Sequence record: MK482688.1
Origin: Escherichia phage vB_EcoM_LMP25
DNA: 64,000 bases
Direction: 5' to 3' (one strand)
Each line of letters opens with the position of its first letter. Position 1 is the first letter of the stretch. The notes beneath the pieces are model-generated. The model searched no databases. It was not told where the DNA came from and saw only the letters and a program-made list of their open reading frames with translations. Shown one piece after another: positions 7,240 to 54,846 of the stretch. The position numbers were made by a program, and so were the translations under genes.

Positions 7240-7737
7240 TCAAGCACAGTTTGCTTTCATTACCTTATGGATTCTTTTTTCAGCATCTTCATAAGTTTCT
7301 TTAGTAATAAACTTAATTGCTGCAATATTGGCATTGTAGAAGAGCCTGAGCTTCGAGTCAATCCTTTTTGTCATTACATCGAATTTATGTTGAAGGTTTG
7401 CTTCACCATAGACTAGACCACCTTTTGTGTAGTAGGTTTGAATAATGTAAAAATCAAAAGATTCTTTTCCAAAGCTTTCAATATCTTTTTTAATATACTC
7501 AGAAGAGGTTTCGTAAGTCATCCAATCACTCTCCTTAGTGACTACCTTCTTCCGAGTCTTCCCAGCAACTTTTCTTTTTGTCACACTGTTAAGCTGTTTC
7601 TTTCCGATATAATATTGTCCAGTCTTCTTACAGTGCACTAAATAGACAAAGCCAAAATGTTTAGTGGGGTCAACTTCCCCACATAAAGATACCCAATGAC
7701 CGTAGGTAGGGCAATTGCCAAATCCTTTAATCTTCAT
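7240..7737 (-). CDS. GIY-YIG family endonuclease (putative homing endonuclease)
   Basis: N-terminal FGFVYLVHCKKTGQYYIGKK matches the GIY-(10-11)-YIG spacing of GIY-YIG nucleases. Confidence 0.5.
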   Translation of the reverse strand: MKIKGFGNCPTYGHWVSLCGEVDPTKHFGFVYLVHCKKTGQYYIGKKQLNSVTKRKVAGKTRKKVVTKESDWMTYETSSEYIKKDIESFGKESFDFYIIQTYYTKGGLVYGEANLQHKFDVMTKRIDSKLRLFYNANIAAIKFITKETYEDAEKRIHKVMKANCA

Positions 7738-8767
7738 TCATACACGGCTCCCAATTATATTTCTTGAAAGAGAAATTGTCTTTTGGATTTCTCTCTTGAT
7801 ATGCTATCCAGAAATGCTGTTCCATTAACTCTAATGGTGTTTTGGTAACAGTCTGTCCATCCCATGATACATAGGTGTAAGAGTCTTTTTTAGCATAGAG
7901 TTCATAGATAGCATCAAGACACTCTTTATAGGTCTCTTTACCCTCTAAAGCATTCATCACAGCTACTTTACCAGCACCTTTAAGGCCGAAGTAGTTGTCT
8001 GCATTATCTCCAGCAACAGCCTGATAACACAAAAATTTAAAACCTACACCAACTGTTTTTGCAGCTTTTGGTTTTGATTTGATAGGACAATCCCAGATAT
8101 CACCAACATTATTATCAGCAATAAAAATTAGTGGTGACTTTTCATAAGTCATATCAATACAATAAGTCCCTTCAGCTTGTCGAAGGTCTTTGTCAATACT
8201 CATGAGAGCAGCCTTCTTACCCATCTTTTCAGCTTTAGCAATTACAATTGAATCGGCTTCGAATCCTCCCTTTAAGAGTTTGAACTCTGGTCTTGACAGA
8301 AGATACTCACGACAAGCGACTAAATGTGTTGGTGTGACAGCATCTTTACGGTTACCTTGATATTGGTGCTCAAGACCTTTCACATCTTTATGTTTATGCA
8401 CACCCTTCTCTGTTAAATAACCTACCCAAGTTCTTTCTTTACCAACAACCTTAAGCCATTCCTGAAGAACCTGCTGAGTAGCCATGATAGCTTCTTTTTC
8501 ACTCTTAGCTTCTTTCCAAGTCTGTCTTTCCCATTCATCTTCATCAAATGCTAGGCCAAGCTCTTCTACAAGGATTCTCTGGTCTGCTAACCATCTTGCA
8601 GCATCTTTTGCATTATCAAATGATTCAGATTCTTCTGCTGTGAGCTTATTAACGTATTTATACTTTGCTTTCTCAACTACACAAGCACCTTTATAGGCAA
8701 TGCTGTCAGAGTCAATAAAGACATGTGTAACTGAATCGGGAAGCTTTGTTAATGTGTACTTCTCCAT
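7727..8767 (-). CDS. RNase H / 5'-3' flap endonuclease (T4 RNase H-like)
   Basis: 346 aa; VFIDSDSIAY, EADSIVIAKAEK, SIDKDLRQ and GDNADNYFGLKGAG blocks align by eye with the acidic clusters and H3TH region of T4 RNase H/FEN nucleases. Confidence 0.55.
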   Translation of the reverse strand: MEKYTLTKLPDSVTHVFIDSDSIAYKGACVVEKAKYKYVNKLTAEESESFDNAKDAARWLADQRILVEELGLAFDEDEWERQTWKEAKSEKEAIMATQQVLQEWLKVVGKERTWVGYLTEKGVHKHKDVKGLEHQYQGNRKDAVTPTHLVACREYLLSRPEFKLLKGGFEADSIVIAKAEKMGKKAALMSIDKDLRQAEGTYCIDMTYEKSPLIFIADNNVGDIWDCPIKSKPKAAKTVGVGFKFLCYQAVAGDNADNYFGLKGAGKVAVMNALEGKETYKECLDAIYELYAKKDSYTYVSWDGQTVTKTPLELMEQHFWIAYQERNPKDNFSFKKYNWEPCMNED

Positions 8768-13968: not shown

Positions 13969-14391
13969 TTATTTCTCTCTCAGTTGGTTAAGTTTCTTTC
14001 TAGAACATTTTAAGTTTTCGGATGAAGAAAAGTCAAGTGTCTTTTCAGAACGTGGATAGTAATGTCTATCCCAAGAAGTTTCAACATCATTAATCAGTGA
14101 CGCTAGATTACACAGGTCTGTACCACTTTGCAACCTCTTTTTAAGAGAATCTAGTAAAGCAACTGTGTCTTTAGCTTTACGTCTCGCTGTAGCAACATCT
14201 TTCATATGCTCAAATACAGAGCATTTTAAGTCATCTTCATAGTTTTCAGACAACTCTATTTCATGTTGTATATCAACCATTCTCCTGTGATGGTGAGCAT
14301 ATTCCCGTTGAGCAGCAATGTCAAGTTCTTCCAACTTCTGCAAAGCTCTAACAAAGTCAGCTATGTCTGGGTGAACAAACATTTTCTGCAT
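13969..14391 (-). CDS. Hypothetical protein
   Basis: 140-aa ORF at the start of the minus-strand operon. Confidence 0.4.
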   Translation of the reverse strand: MQKMFVHPDIADFVRALQKLEELDIAAQREYAHHHRRMVDIQHEIELSENYEDDLKCSVFEHMKDVATARRKAKDTVALLDSLKKRLQSGTDLCNLASLINDVETSWDRHYYPRSEKTLDFSSSENLKCSRKKLNQLREK

Positions 14392-14564
14392 GTAAGCCTC
14401 TTTTAAGTAACTATTAAGTTTTAATCTTTTATCTTAACGTATTCTATACGTTATACTTTAAAGCTTTTTAAAAGCTATTAAATAATCTTTTAAGAGTTTT
14501 AAAGTATCTGTATAGTTAAACTGTTAAGTAACCTTTTAAGTAAAAACCCACTTCGCAAAGATTA

Positions 14565-14589
14565 ACACCTTGTCAAGTACATTGTCAAC
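14565..14589. promoter_or_regulatory. Conserved ~25-bp box ACACCTTGTCAAGTAC(A/T)TTGTCAAC in a divergent intergenic region (second copy at 57006-57031)
   Basis: Near-identical sequence at two divergent promoter regions; contains two TTGTCAA (TTGACA on the minus strand) elements. Confidence 0.5.
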
Positions 14590-14648
14590 TTGCTTTTTAT
14601 AATTTTTTGCAGTAATGTATGAGGTTAATGATTTTAGAGGGAGTAAAA

Positions 14649-17348
14649 ATGGAAAACGTAGATTTTAAAAACTTACATTTAGTTGGTGATACAGAAACTG
14701 ATGGTTTACTCCTTGAGTTCACTAAAGTGCACGTAATGGCTTTCGCAGACTATAAATCTGACGATGAAGAGCCACCTGTATGGGTCTTTACAGATGAGCC
14801 TATCCTCGGTCACAAGTACACTAAGTACATCAAGGGTGGTTTACGTGAAGGTGTTGAGTTTGCGTTAAAGGCAAAACGACTTTGCATCCATAACGGCCTC
14901 GGTTATGACTGGTGGGTTTTCAATCACATTGCACCTGATTTATGGAACTTTGATAATCCAAAGTGTAAACCGTGGAGTAATTTCTTTCAGGATTCTCTTA
15001 TCCAGTCTCGTGTTCAGTGGATGGATAGACCAACTCCAAAGGGTTATAAAGGTGCTCATGGTTTGGCTGCATGGGGTGCTCGTGTTGGTGTTCGTAAACC
15101 AGAGATTGAACATTGGGGTGTGTGGAATGCAGAAATCTTCACTCGTGTTGTAGAAGATATCCGTATTAACGCCAAAACTAAACGGGCACTTGATAATGAA
15201 TATCTCAAGCTTAAGAAGTGTGGCATAGACACTTATGAAACCTACATGCGAGCTAAAGAAACATCTTTCTGGATGAGTCAACAAGCTATCAATGGCTGGA
15301 AAGCTGATAAAGAGCTTATGGAGTTCCATGTAAAGGAACTTGACAAGTTGACTAATGAGCTTGCTTCAGAGGTTGAACCACATCTACCTCCAACTATTAA
15401 GACTAAAGGTAAAGTCACTGGAGAAGAGTTTGCAAAAGCTTGGAATGAGTATGTTGAATCGTTCGGTCATGCAGATGGACTGAAGAGAATTACCAAGTAC
15501 CCTAAGACAAAGTACCGTCAGCAGGTACGTAACGGTGAGATGCAGACATATGAAATCAAGCCATTTGGTAAGCCAACTACAAAGATTTTTAACATTGAAA
15601 AGAGAAATTGCTATACACCAACCAACTCTGTAACTGGTGAAGAGTACAAGGAAGGCTTTGTAGCAATGAAGGATGCTCGTGCAATTTGCAATGAGTTGAA
15701 TGCAAAGATTGGTAAGAAATGCAAAGACTGGAAGCCAGTAAAAACAGTCAAAACTGTGAAGTACTACAACAGTCATGTTGTTAACCACTTTGAACTTGAG
15801 TCAAGTCGCTATACAGGTTTGATTGATGCACCATATACACCAATTGAGTTCGAAGTTTCTCGTATGACTCAGGTAGCAGTTGTTAAAGACTACTTGAAAT
15901 CAGTTGGTTGGATTCCAGATGACTGGAACTACAAGAAAGACTCAGATGGTCGCCCTGTCAAAGTTTGTCGTTTCAAAGACAACAAAAAGATGATTACAAA
16001 GCATCCTAAGTGGCAGGAGATGGTTGAACGGTGTGGCTTGAGTTATGTTGAACATGAAGGTGTCCAGTACATTGAGCATAACTGGTCTGTGAAGAAGTAC
16101 ACAGATTTGCTTGAGCCTTGCTTAATCCGTACTTCACCAAAACTTACTGAATCATCTTATGATACGATTGAAGGCGAGCTTGGACAGAAGATTGCTAAAT
16201 ACTATACTTTGATGCACCGACGTAGAACTATTGAGAACTCAAAGGATGATGAAAAAGGTTGGTTGAACCAGATTCGTCCTGATGGTCGCCTTAGTGCTGG
16301 TGCAATGGTGTTTGGTACTTCAACTGGACGTATGACACAATATGGTATTGTAAACGTACCGTCTGGTGCTGCTGTCTATGGGGAACCAATGAGGGCAGTG
16401 TGGATTTGTGAAGAAGGTACTAACGTCGTCTCTGTAGACATGAACTCAGCCCAGCTAGTTCTTCTTTGTAACTTTATGGGTGACAAAGACTTCACCAAAG
16501 CGGTGACGCAAGGTAAAGAAGAGATTGAGTTTATTCGTCAAGAAGATGGACGCTATTACTGCAAACATTTTGATGAGTACCTCAATCCAGAGATTGATAA
16601 GTACCTTCGCTATGACTCTGAGAATGACCTTTACGTTGTCTATTCAGGGACTGATGCACACACACTGAACAGTATTTACTTTAGCTTGAATGATGAGCAG
16701 GATATCTTGACTTGTCGAGCTACTCAGGATGAGAATCTTCTTCATGAGATTAGTAAAGGTCGTAAGAAAGCTAAGAATGGTATCTATGCACTGCTGTTCG
16801 GTGCAGGGGATGAGAAGTTTGCTAAGACGATTAAAGCTGCAACTACTCAGGAAGGTGCACTGACTAAACAAACTTACTTTATTCGTTTGCCTAAAATTAA
16901 GAAGCTACTAGATGACTTGGAAGCTGACTACAAAGCAACTAAAAAGGCACTTGAAGAGGTGTTTGGTAAGACTGCTGCAATCTCTAAAGGGGGTTTTGTA
17001 AAGGTTGCTGGAGCTTGGTTGTGGTGTAAATCTCCACATAAGTTATTGAATTATTTGCTCATGGGTTCAGAGGCTCAGATTCAAAATGAGGCAATTAACC
17101 TTGCTTGTAGAAGAGCATGTGAAGAAGGATTGACAAAATTAAATGGACGAAAACCAGCAATTGGTGCTAGGCTTTTGCTGGCATACCACGATGAAAACAG
17201 TTGGGAATGCCCAGAAAGTATGACTCAAGAAGTTAAAGCCATAACTGACTGGATGTATGGTCAGGCATCTAAGAATTTAGGTTTGAAGAGTGAGACGCTT
17301 GTAACTGGCACAGGTAAGGTTGGTAAGAGCTGGTTGGAAGTACATTGA
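14649..17348 (+). CDS. DNA polymerase, family A (Pol I-like) with 3'-5' proofreading exonuclease
   Basis: Start moved to the ATG at 14649 (GAGGGAG RBS). Exo I-like LVGDTETDGL, Pol A motif B RKKAKNGIYALLFGAG, motif C-like LAYHDENS. Confidence 0.85.
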   Translation: MENVDFKNLHLVGDTETDGLLLEFTKVHVMAFADYKSDDEEPPVWVFTDEPILGHKYTKYIKGGLREGVEFALKAKRLCIHNGLGYDWWVFNHIAPDLWNFDNPKCKPWSNFFQDSLIQSRVQWMDRPTPKGYKGAHGLAAWGARVGVRKPEIEHWGVWNAEIFTRVVEDIRINAKTKRALDNEYLKLKKCGIDTYETYMRAKETSFWMSQQAINGWKADKELMEFHVKELDKLTNELASEVEPHLPPTIKTKGKVTGEEFAKAWNEYVESFGHADGLKRITKYPKTKYRQQVRNGEMQTYEIKPFGKPTTKIFNIEKRNCYTPTNSVTGEEYKEGFVAMKDARAICNELNAKIGKKCKDWKPVKTVKTVKYYNSHVVNHFELESSRYTGLIDAPYTPIEFEVSRMTQVAVVKDYLKSVGWIPDDWNYKKDSDGRPVKVCRFKDNKKMITKHPKWQEMVERCGLSYVEHEGVQYIEHNWSVKKYTDLLEPCLIRTSPKLTESSYDTIEGELGQKIAKYYTLMHRRRTIENSKDDEKGWLNQIRPDGRLSAGAMVFGTSTGRMTQYGIVNVPSGAAVYGEPMRAVWICEEGTNVVSVDMNSAQLVLLCNFMGDKDFTKAVTQGKEEIEFIRQEDGRYYCKHFDEYLNPEIDKYLRYDSENDLYVVYSGTDAHTLNSIYFSLNDEQDILTCRATQDENLLHEISKGRKKAKNGIYALLFGAGDEKFAKTIKAATTQEGALTKQTYFIRLPKIKKLLDDLEADYKATKKALEEVFGKTAAISKGGFVKVAGAWLWCKSPHKLLNYLLMGSEAQIQNEAINLACRRACEEGLTKLNGRKPAIGARLLLAYHDENSWECPESMTQEVKAITDWMYGQASKNLGLKSETLVTGTGKVGKSWLEVH

Positions 17349-17358
17349 TGGTGTTGAA

Positions 17359-17871
17359 ATGATTACAGAAATTCGTCTTAAGGAGCTATTGGACTACGAC
17401 CCCGAAACAGGGGTCTTTACTTGGAAGTTTAGAGAAGGTAATGCAAACTTTAACTCTAGATTTGGAGGTAAGAGGGCTGGAAACTACAGAACAAATACTG
17501 ATGGACACAAGTCAGTTCAGTTGCTGATTGATGGAAGGGGTTACCAAGCAAATCGTTTAGTTATCTTGTATATGGATGGATATCTACCTGATAAAACCTT
17601 ACAGGTTGACCATAAGAATGGGGACGGTTGGGACAATAGGTACTTGAATTTAAGGGTTTGTACAGCTTCACAAAACTCTTGCAATCGGTCAAGAGAGTCC
17701 CCATCTGGGTTGCCAAAAGGTGTACAGAAGATAAGTAAAAGGTTTCGAGCAATGATACGTTTACAAGGTAAAAACTATCATCTTGGTATGTTTGACACAC
17801 CAGAAGAAGCCCATAAAGCTTACTGTGAAGCTGCTATTAAACTCCACGGAGAGTTTGCAAAACTAAGTTGA
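17359..17871 (+). CDS. HNH homing endonuclease with AP2-type DNA-binding domain
   Basis: VDHKNGDGWDNRYLNLRVCTASQN (HNH core) plus C-terminal AP2-like RAMIRLQGKNYHLGMFDTPEEAHKAY; begins 11 nt after the polymerase stop. Confidence 0.7.
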   Translation: MITEIRLKELLDYDPETGVFTWKFREGNANFNSRFGGKRAGNYRTNTDGHKSVQLLIDGRGYQANRLVILYMDGYLPDKTLQVDHKNGDGWDNRYLNLRVCTASQNSCNRSRESPSGLPKGVQKISKRFRAMIRLQGKNYHLGMFDTPEEAHKAYCEAAIKLHGEFAKLS

Positions 17872-17922
17872 CAAGGTGCTCAGGGAAGAGTACCTTATAC
17901 TACATCTTGTATAGGAGGGCTT

Positions 17923-18132
17923 ATGAGTCACCGTGGAAGAACCCATGCAGCGATGATGAAAGGTGCTTCAAAGGAAACTATCAAGAACCGTAAGCAGAAG
18001 TTGTTTGAGAGAATGAACAGGCTAATTGATAATACTTCCCTGTCTGGTGGTGAGAAAGTTTTCCTTAAAAGTAACCTTAAAAGCATTGCACAAGAACTTG
18101 TAGATATTGAATATTGGAGACATCAAAAATGA
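17923..18132 (+). CDS. Hypothetical protein
   Basis: 69 aa; AGGAGGG RBS. Confidence 0.4.
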   Translation: MSHRGRTHAAMMKGASKETIKNRKQKLFERMNRLIDNTSLSGGEKVFLKSNLKSIAQELVDIEYWRHQK

Positions 18133-18347
18133 CACTTGCAGACGTTATTCAGCAACTTCATGATAACTGCTATACTCCAGAGCTGATTCAGGAGATGTGC
18201 ATTGTAGTCATGCCTAGTAGGTTCGTAAAAACCTTTAACAGCGACACTTTAAGGTCTGCACACATTCTTATTGTTGAAGGTAAGATTGCAAAAGACCGTA
18301 CTGGAGTACTCAAAGGTGAACGTATTGATATTCTGGAGTTGCTATGA
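18129..18347 (+). CDS. Hypothetical protein
   Basis: Start trimmed to the ATG at 18129 (GGAGA RBS). Confidence 0.35.
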   Translation: MTLADVIQQLHDNCYTPELIQEMCIVVMPSRFVKTFNSDTLRSAHILIVEGKIAKDRTGVLKGERIDILELL

Positions 18348-18613
18348 AGAAAATGTACAGTCTCTGGGGAAGTATTATGTGGAAAGCAGTAATTGCGCTT
18401 GGTGTTGTTTTTCTATCTGGCTGCAACCCTTCTTATGAAGATAAAAATGCTTCTTACAGTCTCCCACCAGAGATGCAAGATTGCAGAGTATACAAGTTAC
18501 ATGGTGATGCTATAAGCAGGGATATTGTTGTTGTCAGATGCCCAAACTCTCAAACAACAACATCTTATAGCTATGGCAAAAATGGTCAATCACATACTAC
18601 GGTTATTGAGTGA
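18344..18613 (+). CDS. Putative lipoprotein
   Basis: Signal-peptide-like N-terminus ending in a lipobox-like LSGC. Confidence 0.4.
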   Translation: MKKMYSLWGSIMWKAVIALGVVFLSGCNPSYEDKNASYSLPPEMQDCRVYKLHGDAISRDIVVVRCPNSQTTTSYSYGKNGQSHTTVIE

Positions 18614-18623
18614 GGTTTTCACG

Positions 18624-18830
18624 ATGGAAGTATTAGTAAACTATATCTACCGTTATGATACTGTTCACACCACTACAACCGTAGCTCAACGTAACCCAAT
18701 CGTCCCACGAGAAGGTGAGTTGGTTCGCATCGAGGGTTGGACTTACACTGTGGAAAGTATCATTCATAAGTTTGATGTTGCTGGTGATGTTCAAGTTATC
18801 GACGTGGAAATTGGCGGTAAGAGAAAATGA
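18624..18830 (+). CDS. Hypothetical protein
   Basis: ORF 18525..18830 trimmed to the internal ATG after the lipoprotein stop (GAGG RBS). Confidence 0.35.
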   Translation: MEVLVNYIYRYDTVHTTTTVAQRNPIVPREGELVRIEGWTYTVESIIHKFDVAGDVQVIDVEIGGKRK

Positions 18831-18994
18831 AATCTAAGCAAACAATGACAGATGCAATCTTCACAGTACACAGTTTCGAAAGGTTGCACATTAAAGATGC
18901 AAAAAATACACCAAAATGCGTTGTACATTTCATTAAAAGACGTAGTGATAGGTCTTATATAAAATCTGACACAGGCGAGAGTACAAATGGGTAA
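18827..18994 (+). CDS. Hypothetical small protein (55 aa)
   Basis: Hand-translated; ATGA start/stop overlap with the upstream gene; below ORF-track cutoff. Confidence 0.25.
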   Translation: MKSKQTMTDAIFTVHSFERLHIKDAKNTPKCVVHFIKRRSDRSYIKSDTGESTNG

Positions 18995-19205
18995 AGATAA
19001 TAAATTTCAGAACGCAGTTCTTACAGAAGATGGTGAGCTTGAAGCATTCATTCTTCGTGTTGATGGTAAGTTATTCCGGTGTCGTTGTGGGTCAAACTGT
19101 TTCCATAAACCAGATAAAAACGACTTAGAGCTTTACGCATGTAATGCTTGCAACACTTGGTATCACTCAGAGGTTAAAAATGACAATTCTGTACAAACAA
19201 AATAA
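18987..19205 (+). CDS. Small Cys-rich (zinc-ribbon-like) protein
   Basis: 72 aa with CRCGSNC ... CNACN pairs. Confidence 0.4.
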   Translation: MGKDNKFQNAVLTEDGELEAFILRVDGKLFRCRCGSNCFHKPDKNDLELYACNACNTWYHSEVKNDNSVQTK

Positions 19206-20283
19206 AGATGGTTCCTTCAACGTCTGGTCATGTGTTGCTGTAGGTGACAAAGTTATCACAACCTATGGTAAAGAAAATGGCAAGATGATGTTTGAAGAGT
19301 ACACAGCAGAGCCTAAGAACATCGGTAAAAAGAATGAGCGTAATGCTGAACAGCAAGCTCTCTTTGAAGTTGCTGCTAAGTATAAAAAGCAAGTTGACCG
19401 TAAAGGGTATGCTTACACAAAAGAGTCTGCACAGAATACTGAGAAGGTAGGTGTACAGCTTGCTCATGATGCTGCAAAGGTTAGTCATGCAAAGTATCTG
19501 AAGTTCCCTGCTGATGCTCAACCAAAACTGGATGGTGTACGTTGTAGAATTTCAAGACACTTAAGTATTGGTAGTGTATTTACAGCATATTCTCGTGAGA
19601 ACACTATTTATAAAATTCCTACTGAGCTAATACCTGACATTATGGCAATGTTGAGGCTCCATAAAGACGTTGATGAATTTGATGGTGAAATCTATGCTCA
19701 TGGGTTGGACTTAGAAGATATTGTCTCCATGATTAAAAATGAAGACAATCCTGACCGACATCTACTCAAGTTTTACTGGTATGATATCTGTGACAGTACT
19801 AAGACGTGGCCTGAGCGTAGAGATATTATTGAGACTTCACCATTGAATGACTTCAGAGACGGCTGTAAAGTTGTTCCTGTTAAGTCTCGTCGTGTAAATT
19901 CTTGGGAAGAGTTTGATGAAGCCCATGATAAGTGGGTTGAAGCTCAGTTTGAAGGTGCAATGTACCGTTCAATCTCTGAAGACTCATTCTATGAGTGTTG
20001 TCACCGTTCATACTTCTTGATTAAGCACAAGAAGATGCACACTGAAGAGTTTAAAGTGACTGGTGTAAAGACTGATAAACGTGGTCATGGTAAGTTCGTT
20101 GTAGAGACTCTTCCTAACGTCTTTGTAGATGTTTCATGGAAAACTACACACGAGAAGAAACAGTATCTTGCTGAACATCCTGAAGAGTTTATCGGGAAAC
20201 CTTTAACTGTTCAGTTCCAGAAGATGACTCGTAAGGGTTCTTTACAGTTTCCTGTAGGGCTAGTTATTAGGGATTATGAGTAA
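19180..20283 (+). CDS. ATP-dependent DNA ligase
   Basis: Start placed at the ATG at 19180 (GAGG RBS). Contains the adenylation motif PKLDGVRC (KxDGxR). Confidence 0.8.
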   Translation: MTILYKQNKDGSFNVWSCVAVGDKVITTYGKENGKMMFEEYTAEPKNIGKKNERNAEQQALFEVAAKYKKQVDRKGYAYTKESAQNTEKVGVQLAHDAAKVSHAKYLKFPADAQPKLDGVRCRISRHLSIGSVFTAYSRENTIYKIPTELIPDIMAMLRLHKDVDEFDGEIYAHGLDLEDIVSMIKNEDNPDRHLLKFYWYDICDSTKTWPERRDIIETSPLNDFRDGCKVVPVKSRRVNSWEEFDEAHDKWVEAQFEGAMYRSISEDSFYECCHRSYFLIKHKKMHTEEFKVTGVKTDKRGHGKFVVETLPNVFVDVSWKTTHEKKQYLAEHPEEFIGKPLTVQFQKMTRKGSLQFPVGLVIRDYE

Positions 20284-54196: not shown

Positions 54197-54284
54197 TGGT
54201 GTGCCGTGTAGGAGTCGAACCTACCGAGTCTCAATGACAAGGGATTTACAGTCCCCACCGCTACCATCTACGGGATAACGACAC
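54197..54284 (-). tRNA. tRNA-Tyr (GTA), type II
   Basis: Acceptor GTGTCGT/ACGGCAC, anticodon stem GGGGA/TCCCT with loop CTGTAAA, long variable arm, 88 nt. Confidence 0.7.
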
Positions 54285-54353
54285 ATTTAATTTCTATTCA
54301 GGCTAAGGACTTGCACCTTACAAATCGGTGAGCAATCGCTTCTCTCCTAAATT

Positions 54354-54430
54354 TGGCGGTTAGTCAGGGATTCGAACCCTGTGCCATTCGCTTAACAGGC
54401 GACCGCACATACCTTATGTGCTTCCTAACC
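54354..54430 (-). tRNA. tRNA-Asn (GTT)
   Basis: D-stem GCAC/GTGC, anticodon loop CTGTTAA, T-stem CAGGG/CCCTG. Confidence 0.7.
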
Positions 54431-54443
54431 ATGTTTAGTATTA

Positions 54444-54508
54444 CCAGACCGTATATTTCAATTTTTTCCGCTAAAAATTTAATAAATATTGCTGTAAACG
54501 GTCTTCTG
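54444..54508. repeat. tRNA-spacer repeat, copy c (CCAGACCGT ... TTGCTGTAAACGGTCTTCTG)
   Basis: Inverted arms AGACCGT / ACGGTCT around an AT-rich loop of about 45 nt; ends 6 nt before the next tRNA. Confidence 0.65.
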
Positions 54509-54514
54509 TAAATT

Positions 54515-54591
54515 TGGAGGCGGGTGCAGGAGTCGAACCTGCCGATACCATGCTAATGAGACATGTGAGACGCCCTTTCTCTATACCCGCA
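54515..54591 (-). tRNA. tRNA (CAT), second CAT-anticodon gene; Met or Ile2
   Basis: D-stem GAGA/TCTC, anticodon stem CATGT/GCATG with loop CTCATTA (unusual T37), T-arm GCAGG-TTCGACT-CCTGC, unpaired 1-72. Confidence 0.55.
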
Positions 54592-54602
54592 ATTCTTAAT
54601 GA

Positions 54603-54674
54603 CCAGACCAAATATCTTCTTTGTCCGATTAACTTTCAGATGAGTAGATTAAGTTTGCTGTAATTGGTCTTCTG
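54603..54674. repeat. tRNA-spacer repeat, copy d (CCAGACCAA ... TTGCTGTAATTGGTCTTCTG)
   Basis: Inverted arms AGACCAA / TTGGTCT; ends 7 nt before tRNA-Glu. Confidence 0.65.
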
Positions 54675-54681
54675 TCAAAAC

Positions 54682-54759
54682 TGGCGTTCCAGAAGGGATT
54701 TGAACCCTCAAATATCCACTTTGAAAGAGTGGTGACTTTACCATTTTGTCTACTGGAAC
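54682..54759 (-). tRNA. tRNA-Glu (TTC)
   Basis: Acceptor GTTCCAG/CTGGAAC, perfect anticodon stem CCACT/AGTGG with loop CTTTCAA. Confidence 0.75.
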
Positions 54760-54765
54760 ATTAAT

Positions 54766-54846
54766 TTGGTCTCCGTTGAAGGATTTGAACCCTCGACCCC
54801 TTGCTCCCAAAGCAAGTGCTGCTAAACCAAACTGAGCTAAACGGAG
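54766..54846 (-). tRNA. tRNA-Pro (TGG)
   Basis: Acceptor CTCCGTT/AACGGAG, perfect anticodon stem CTTGC/GCAAG with loop TTTGGGA. Confidence 0.7.

Follow-up and report, generated by a model that had tools for sequence, protein, structure and literature searches.

A probable free-standing HNH-AP2 homing endonuclease gene in a variable slot behind the DNA polymerase gene of a Felix O1-like phage

The window analysed here, a 64,000-nucleotide stretch of Escherichia phage vB_EcoM_LMP25 (MK482688.1), carries an open reading frame (ORF) of 170 amino acids at 17359..17871 on the plus strand, directly behind the DNA polymerase gene. Bases 14000-19500 of the window are 100% identical to Escherichia phage vB_EcoM_LMP33 (MK482689, Felixounavirus) and to LMP34, and they match some 260 records from Felix O1-like phages (Felixounavirus, Ounavirinae) at 80-97%. 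The product of the ORF is 100% identical to QBQ76170.1 of LMP33, which is labelled "putative HNH endonuclease" in GenBank, and in Salmonella phage Mushroom the same gene is labelled "HNH homing endonuclease, AP2/ERF domain". Felix O1 supplied one of the founding examples of the HNH-AP2 homing endonucleases (Magnani et al. 2004, as cited in PMC5318435), a group with members in phages, cyanobacteria and ciliates. Six endonuclease-like sequences have been described in Felix O1 (PMC8300805). The HNH-AP2 gene behind the polymerase is real, was correctly read in a first-pass annotation made from the sequence alone, and was already known and annotated.

The upstream neighbour is a family-A DNA polymerase gene (14619..17348, plus strand) encoding a continuous ORF of 909 amino acids, with matches to Pfam DNA_pol_A (1.2e-15) and phrog_17 (2.9e-113), and its stop codon TGA occupies 17346-17348. 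The polymerase motifs were located in a single frame: Exo I (DTETDG, residue 24), a motif A-like VDMNSAQ (residue 606), motif B (RKKAKNG, residue 715) and motif C (YHDE, residue 856). An Rfam search of the window found no intron. The polymerase had been described as intact, with the exonuclease motif and motifs B and C in one frame, and this description holds.

The endonuclease ORF begins with the ATG at 17359 and ends with the TGA at 17869-17871. Ten nucleotides lie between the polymerase stop and this ATG (TGGTGTTGAA, 17349..17358, plus strand; delimited by comparing the junction with empty sites), and they include a weak Shine-Dalgarno-like GGTG. The ATG is therefore 11 positions past the last base of the stop codon, the distance given in the first-pass annotation, which had also noted an overlap of the upstream in-frame stretch with the polymerase 3' end; this stretch reaches a TTG at 17320 and overlaps the polymerase gene by 29 nt. 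The ATG at 17359 is nonetheless the likely start and the TTG extension is unlikely to be used, because the homologue at locus L018 has an in-frame TAA directly before the same "GGTGTTGAA ATG".

Two domains account for the assignment to the HNH/AP2 type. The nuclease core (residues 63-107; 17545..17679, plus strand) matches Pfam HNH_3 (PF13392) with an E-value of 5.4e-12 and 45.6 bits, above the cut-off of 24.8, and the protein matches phrog_99 "HNH endonuclease" at 6.7e-60. Residues D84-H85, N93, N97-L98-R99 and N109 are invariant in an alignment of the lineages that occupy the slot, leaving the HNH motif intact, and in a profile alignment they correspond to DHKDGN..N..NLR..N of I-HmuI (1u3e; 8.9e-8 with a profile built from five alleles of the locus). 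The AP2-type DNA-binding domain (residues 124-164; 17728..17850, plus strand) scores 6.5e-6 and 26.8 bits as a single sequence, under the Pfam gathering cut-off of 33.3; the five-allele profile matches the solved plant AP2 domains of WRI1 (7wq5, 4.3e-12), ERF096 (5wx9, 4.2e-6), TEM1 (7et4, 9.7e-5) and AtERF1 (1gcc/2gcc, ~1e-4), which places the domain in the AP2 family. A single-sequence AlphaFold2 model of the 170-aa protein had a mean pLDDT of 35.5. Judged by these matches, 17359-17871 is not a chance ORF. A search of the 64-kb window for paralogues of the gene found none.

The gene is followed by the conserved leader of the downstream gene (TTGACA...TATAGGAGGGCTT; 17868..17922, plus strand) and then by a conserved small gene, phrog_5180, of 69 amino acids (17923..18132, plus strand), which forms the right border of the slot. 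In phage NBEco005 and many others, the polymerase stop is followed by a 61-nt spacer and then by the next gene. The junction in NBEco005 consists of the polymerase stop, TTAGTG and then TTGACAAGG, where the window has 513 extra nt; after TTAGTG the sequence runs TTGACAAGGTGCTCA..TATAGGAGGGCTT to the ATG of phrog_5180. The leader is unchanged in empty sites, and the endonuclease stop codon falls within its retained TTGACA. A GTTGA is found at each junction (17353-17357 and 17867-17871), which leaves a 5-nt ambiguity in the insertion point. A promoter scan of 14300-18500 gave 10 promoter-like matches against 9.7 expected and did not call the TTGACA leader. With the leader unchanged and the polymerase ORF continuous, both neighbouring genes are intact; judging by these junctions, the endonuclease gene sits in the 61-nt spacer and disrupts neither the polymerase nor the downstream gene.

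We then compared occupied with empty alleles, as the first-pass annotation had proposed for the polymerase 3' ends. Relatives without the gene do exist, and the comparison supports a free-standing homing endonuclease. Among 21 loci collected (18 from IMG/VR and 3 from GenBank), eight had no endonuclease gene: five had the 61-nt empty spacer, and three had only an unrelated small gene behind the leader. In GenBank, about 100 of 240 relatives have no endonuclease gene at the site, a figure extrapolated from evenly spaced rows of the empty-junction search. The gene is thus a precise presence/absence polymorphism between conserved genes in collinear relatives. The window and NBEco005 form a near-isogenic pair: in 100-nt windows, their identity is mostly 94-100% on the flanks upstream of 17108 and beyond 17871 (95-100% for more than 1 kb on the downstream side), and about 76% between these flanks. 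In essence, what separates the two is a 763-nt cassette, 17109-17871.

The slot is occupied by four HNH-AP2 lineages whose proteins are only 40-50% identical. Type 1, that of the window, was found in about 25 records of the phage collection at 90% amino acid identity or more, and in 27 records by DNA; type 2 was found in about 48 records, type 3, which occupies the same slot in Felix O1 itself, in 18, and type 4 in about 58. Each lineage has its own 5' junction with the polymerase gene: the 10-nt spacer in type 1, a TGATG overlap in type 2, a 17-nt overlap in type 3 and a 3-nt spacer in type 4. At the other end, the four lineages share their last 70 nt (..EEAHKAYCEAAIKLHGEFAKLS*; 17802..17871, plus strand) with 93-100% DNA identity, while the rest of their genes is 25-60% identical. 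This 70-nt end is found neither in the paralogues at a second slot beside the exonuclease gene, where 19-22 of 70 positions match, nor in empty sites. Being locus-specific, it fits recombination between alleles of the polymerase-stop slot. Within type 1, dN/dS was 0.08-0.10 (~0.09) for pairs with a dS of 0.32-0.72, and values in the other lineages were 0.05-0.16. A ratio of about 0.09 indicates purifying selection on the protein, as opposed to the decay of a relic.

The 3' end of the polymerase gene differs between carriers of the gene and empty alleles. Per-site comparison, an identity matrix and a chimeric query delimited an endonuclease-linked polymerase tail ("allele A") at 17109..17348 on the plus strand, comprising the last 80 codons and including motif C (YHDE at 17184). 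Compared with endonuclease-less genomes in steps of 100 nt, the window shows mostly 94-100% identity upstream of ~17050 and 73-83% across the final 300 nt of the polymerase gene. Site by site, the change is abrupt at 17108/17109, and the first differences at this boundary are two Arg codons, for which carriers have AGAAGA and most empty alleles CGTCGT. The contrast between CGTCGT in empty alleles and AGAAGA in carriers was considered as a GC-rich target for AP2, a proposal weakened by the endonuclease-less locus L013, which also has AGAAGA.

The identity matrix covered 237 coding nt of the tract and used the most divergent loci fetched (L019-L021) as the outgroup. Tails of type 1 and some type 2 carriers were 97-100% identical to one another, and 73-76% identical to empty alleles. 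Identity to the outgroup was 70-73% for carriers and 82-84% for empty alleles, the latter about equal to that of the neighbouring 240 nt. Because the empty alleles are nearer to the outgroup than the carriers are, the carrier tail is the imported one. The 240 nt directly upstream of the tail are 93-99% identical among genomes, and the tail of type 3 is only 57-65% identical to all others. For the chimeric query, the carrier tail was joined to the empty spacer and leader. Of the 31 records with a carrier tail (at least 92% identity), 30 bore the HNH gene, the match being split around a span of 811-834 nt, and all one-piece (empty) matches were at most 90% identical. The sole exception, ESCO49, has a carrier tail, no gene and a clean empty-type junction, CAC TAA TTAGTA TTGACA; either the gene was lost here, or ESCO49 preserves the state of the donor lineage before the invasion.

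Thus, flanking sequence is co-inherited with the gene as a 240-nt tail with a sharp boundary, and this tail (17109-17348) is likely a co-converted or immunity tract. In some type 2 carriers (SeKF_63, ASO1A and BPS17L1) the polymerase tail is of the empty type, so that not every lineage need co-convert it. The boundary at 17108/17109 is a candidate cleavage site or recombination hot spot. It could instead go back to a single old recombination, passed on by descent, and not to repeated cutting: the upstream 240 nt are so similar among genomes that repeated homing is inseparable from one old event plus recombination. Differences in the downstream flanks of type 1 genomes speak for movement of the cassette, short of proof.

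Within the endonuclease gene lies a GC hairpin, GACCCC-GAAACA-GGGGTC (17398..17415, plus strand), a terminator-like match that occurs once in the window. Codons 14-19 (D-P-E-T-G-V) form its perfect 6-bp GC stem. The stem was present exactly once in each of the 23 HNH-bearing Ounavirinae loci fetched, including paralogues from the other slot, with a variable loop, and in none of 78 other loci, of which about 45 are homologues on other viral contigs that have the same peptide motif. None of the eight endonuclease-less loci had it. The codons involved are rare in the phage, in which CCC makes up 2.6% of Pro, GGG 6.9% of Gly and GTC 11% of Val codons; given this codon usage, the probability of the hairpin codon set is 7.5e-5 per independent lineage. 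In a terminator scan of 14300-18500 the hairpin was the only notable match, and its U-tract is not conserved. RNA folding of 17330-17440 revealed no unusual overall stability (z = 0.57). The conservation points either to a selected nucleic-acid hairpin or to a short patch homogenised by gene conversion. The hairpin may act as an attenuator, or as an operator to which the AP2 domain of the encoded protein binds, and so keep expression of the nuclease low.

Other selfish elements are found in the relatives. In some, a group I intron of 311 nt (Rfam, 62 bits) is inserted in polymerase motif B, after a position corresponding to ~16791 of the window and about 560 nt upstream of the polymerase stop. 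Relatives also have the second HNH slot beside the exonuclease gene; in the window, both this slot and the intron site are empty. The first-pass annotation had taken a GIY-YIG gene at 7240-7737 (minus strand), together with the HNH gene, as a mark of a host for selfish endonucleases. The domain itself is confirmed (PF19835 SegE_GIY-YIG, 4.9e-28), and the ORF is annotated in the records either as "NAD synthetase" or as "GIY-YIG homing endonuclease". Its mobility is a different matter: in 192 of 222 records the 1.5-kb region that holds the ORF is uninterrupted, rather than patchily present, and since the ORF lies in the same place in these relatives it gives no sign of current mobility. On this evidence it looks fixed in the genus and not mobile. 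The intron and the second HNH slot of the relatives are better evidence than the GIY-YIG ORF that the genus hosts selfish elements.

Taken together, we consider 17359-17871 to be a free-standing homing endonuclease gene of the HNH_3 + AP2 type, with a probability of about 0.8 on the sequence comparisons. The reading as free-standing, rather than part of an intron or intein, had already been put forward in the first-pass annotation, and several observations agree with it: the polymerase is continuous, the ORF starts after its stop codon, Rfam identified no intron, relatives without the gene exist, and carriers have a private, recoded polymerase tail.

How such a gene would spread can be outlined from the T4 Seg/MobE-type free-standing endonucleases, for which the steps are established (PMC2988022, PMC2790892). 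In a mixed infection, the AP2 domain and the N-terminal region would bind a site in the endonuclease-less allele. The target would most likely lie in the 3'-terminal ~240 nt of the polymerase gene, at its edge or in the adjacent spacer. The single HNH active site would then nick or cut this allele, and recombinational repair, with the carrier genome as template, would transfer the endonuclease gene along with the stretch of polymerase tail that separates cut and insertion. The carrier would be protected because its own tail (17109-17348) has diverged, with many synonymous changes. The outcome would be a mobile cassette of 763 nt, 17109-17871. For this protein, we infer enzymatic activity, the position of the target, nicking as opposed to a double-strand break, and super-Mendelian inheritance from these precedents. 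A literature search found no cleavage, nicking or homing assay for this protein or close relatives, and no mapped target for felixounavirus HNH-AP2 members.

HNH_3 phage endonucleases include I-HmuI, I-BasI and I-TwoI. I-HmuI is encoded by an intron in a polymerase gene and has a helix-turn-helix C-terminal domain. It resembles the protein described here in its HNH_3 core, which aligns (D-H...N...N), in its length (174 versus 170 aa) and in having one active site per monomer, a common feature that would fit strand-specific nicking. Unlike I-HmuI, the present gene is free-standing and has an AP2 domain in place of the helix-turn-helix C-terminal domain. Members of the HNH-AP2 family share with it an N-terminal HNH and a C-terminal AP2 domain, are phage-borne and often lie beside DNA polymerase genes. 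The "IPA-HNH" group of Vibrio phage ICP1 is too diverged for Pfam HNH_3 (PMC10448857), whereas our protein matches HNH_3 directly. More generally, nuclease genes of phages are located where genetic exchange has its boundaries, often near polymerase genes (PMC10448857).

The T4-like Seg/MobE genes are intergenic, lie beside an essential conserved gene and are polymorphic in presence among relatives; flanking markers are co-converted when they spread, and the target lies in the neighbouring gene, distant from the insertion (PMC2988022, PMC2790892). The gene behind the polymerase is likewise intergenic beside an essential gene and polymorphic in presence, its flank is co-inherited, and its target is predicted to be in the neighbour. 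The T4 free-standing enzymes are built from different modules, either GIY-YIG or HNH with other binding domains, and the four lineages in one slot with a common 70-nt 3' end set the present locus apart from the T4 systems.

A further precedent is collaborative homing, as described for F-CphI and the cyanophage psbA intron (PMC6083498). Like F-CphI, the gene encodes a free-standing endonuclease and directly follows a gene which in some relatives is interrupted by an ORF-less group I intron. That it belongs to an intron or intein system, for example as a trans-acting endonuclease that mobilises the polymerase intron, was suggested by Mushroom, NS7, garuso, warpig and Tf, all of which carry the ORF-less 311-nt intron and a type 1 gene. 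However, at least 97 records contain the intron, type 2, type 4 and endonuclease-less genomes among them, it often holds its own "endonuclease VII" ORF, and many type 1 genomes, the window included, are intron-less. Our census found no association of gene and intron of the kind that would liken the system to F-CphI, and the tract linked to type 1 stops at 17108, short of the intron site, which lies about 320 nt further upstream. With the intron spread across all slot states and missing from many type 1 genomes, we rejected collaborative homing, and membership in any intron or intein system is very improbable. It is also improbable, though somewhat less so, that the gene is an inactive relic drifting to loss and the linked polymerase tail only a historical scar. 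Such relics are predicted by the homing-cycle model, ESCO49 with its carrier-type tail and no gene suggests that loss happens, and the ribosome-binding site is weak. Nevertheless, all 26-27 type 1 records have an unbroken ORF, the catalytic residues are invariant, and the low dN/dS at substantial synonymous divergence is incompatible with neutral decay.

A less improbable alternative, to which we still give clearly less credence than an even chance, is that the gene is kept because it benefits the phage and is not, or not only, selfish. The nuclease might damage the polymerase gene of co-infecting relatives, as interference competition or marker exclusion, or the AP2 domain might regulate transcription around the polymerase operon. 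Strong purifying selection is consistent with either version, as are the four lineages kept at one slot in ~60% of genomes. Each lineage having its own polymerase tail would be expected of an attack and immunity pair, and the GC hairpin in the gene could be an operator for the AP2 domain, which prefers GC (PMC10448857). Yet ~40% of the relatives have no gene here, so the gene is dispensable, and selfish spread alone predicts the same comparative pattern. A benefit to the phage is also compatible with homing rather than its exclusive alternative.

In practical terms, a routine annotation is borne out, that of a selfish nuclease and not of replication machinery, the polymerase being complete without it. 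Both the final 240 nt of the polymerase gene and the adjoining slot are recombination-driven mosaics, and are therefore unfit as phylogenetic markers for users in phage therapy, food safety and phylogenetics. NBEco005 and LMP33 provide a natural near-isogenic pair, a convenient system for mapping the target of an HNH-AP2 enzyme. To a gene that was already known, the four-lineage slot, the sharp boundary of the cassette and the conserved hairpin are modest additions. More speculatively, the polymerase-stop slot could be a site of cassette exchange, at which at least four lineages may replace one another by means of the polymerase tail and the shared 70-nt end as recombination arms, with the rare-codon GC hairpin as a cis-acting control element; we regard this combined proposal as tentative and rather doubtful. 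If it were true, each lineage would drag in a private motif-C tail, and the endonucleases would be the main driver diversifying an essential catalytic segment of the polymerase, with the cut site at or near 17108/17109.

Within the HNH-AP2 gene (17359-17871, + strand) that occupies the slot after the DNA polymerase stop, codons 14-19 form a perfect GC hairpin, GACCCC-N6-GGGGTC (17398-17415), using codons that this phage seldom employs. The hairpin was kept in all of the Ounavirinae HNH-AP2 genes examined (23/23), including paralogues at another locus; among the loci fetched from relatives and homologues (L-numbers), these were L001, L003-L008, L012, L014, L015, L017-L019, L022-L024, L028-L030, L039, L043, L046 and L064. 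From codon usage, the probability of this codon set was 7.5e-5 per lineage. The hairpin was not found in homologues of other viruses that have the same peptide motif.

There is a second HNH-AP2 slot, probably at ~7727-7740, where a GIY-YIG ORF (7240-7737, - strand) meets the gene for the 5'-3' exonuclease (7727-8767). The window has nothing inserted there, while in Felix O1, wV8, BPS15Q2, FSL SP-010 and others this 1.5-kb region contains an extra annotated HNH endonuclease of ~490 nt. The hairpin-bearing paralogues outside the polymerase slot (L039, L043, L046 and L064) may belong here. The adjoining GIY-YIG ORF encodes a SegE-type GIY-YIG domain (Pfam, 4.9e-28) and is found at a conserved position in 192 of the 222 felixounavirus records; it thus appears to be a fixed or domesticated gene, not a mobile one. 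Many of these records annotate it as "NAD synthetase".

The polymerase gene of relatives is itself interrupted by a group I intron, inserted in motif B between RKKAKNGIYA and LLFGAG (for example, at 4293-4603 of the relative's locus L003). The intron was present in at least 97 phage records and had three forms: one of 311 nt with no ORF, one of ~810 nt that contains an "endonuclease VII" ORF, and a variant of 276 nt. The window polymerase gene carries no such intron, and the corresponding site, at ~16791, is empty. The DNA ligase gene (19144-20283), a single ORF in the window, is split in two in the annotation of several relatives (adrianh, ekra, warpig, SapYZU01, fjerdesal and others), which suggests a further insertion, either an intron or an endonuclease gene, inside the ligase gene of some genomes. 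Elsewhere, the window carries a cluster of 24 tRNA genes (49774-54846, - strand; Rfam RF00005) that is typical of Felix O1-like phages.

Downstream of the endonuclease slot, the TTGACA..AGGAGG leader is followed in many relatives by a small optional gene, which starts MTLSEIEVQLQCAGYS and precedes the phrog_5180 gene. It was found in L009, L018-L021 and L102, at the position equivalent to 17923, where the window has none, and its occurrence was independent of the state of the endonuclease slot.

Escherichia phage vB_EcoM_ESCO49 (L102, 1051-1440) was the sole record found in which the polymerase tail of carrier type, that is, the endonuclease-linked last 240 nt of the polymerase gene (window 17109-17348), stands next to an endonuclease slot that is cleanly empty. 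This state may reflect loss of the gene or else an empty allele that is resistant; the ESCO49 allele would be of use as a control substrate.
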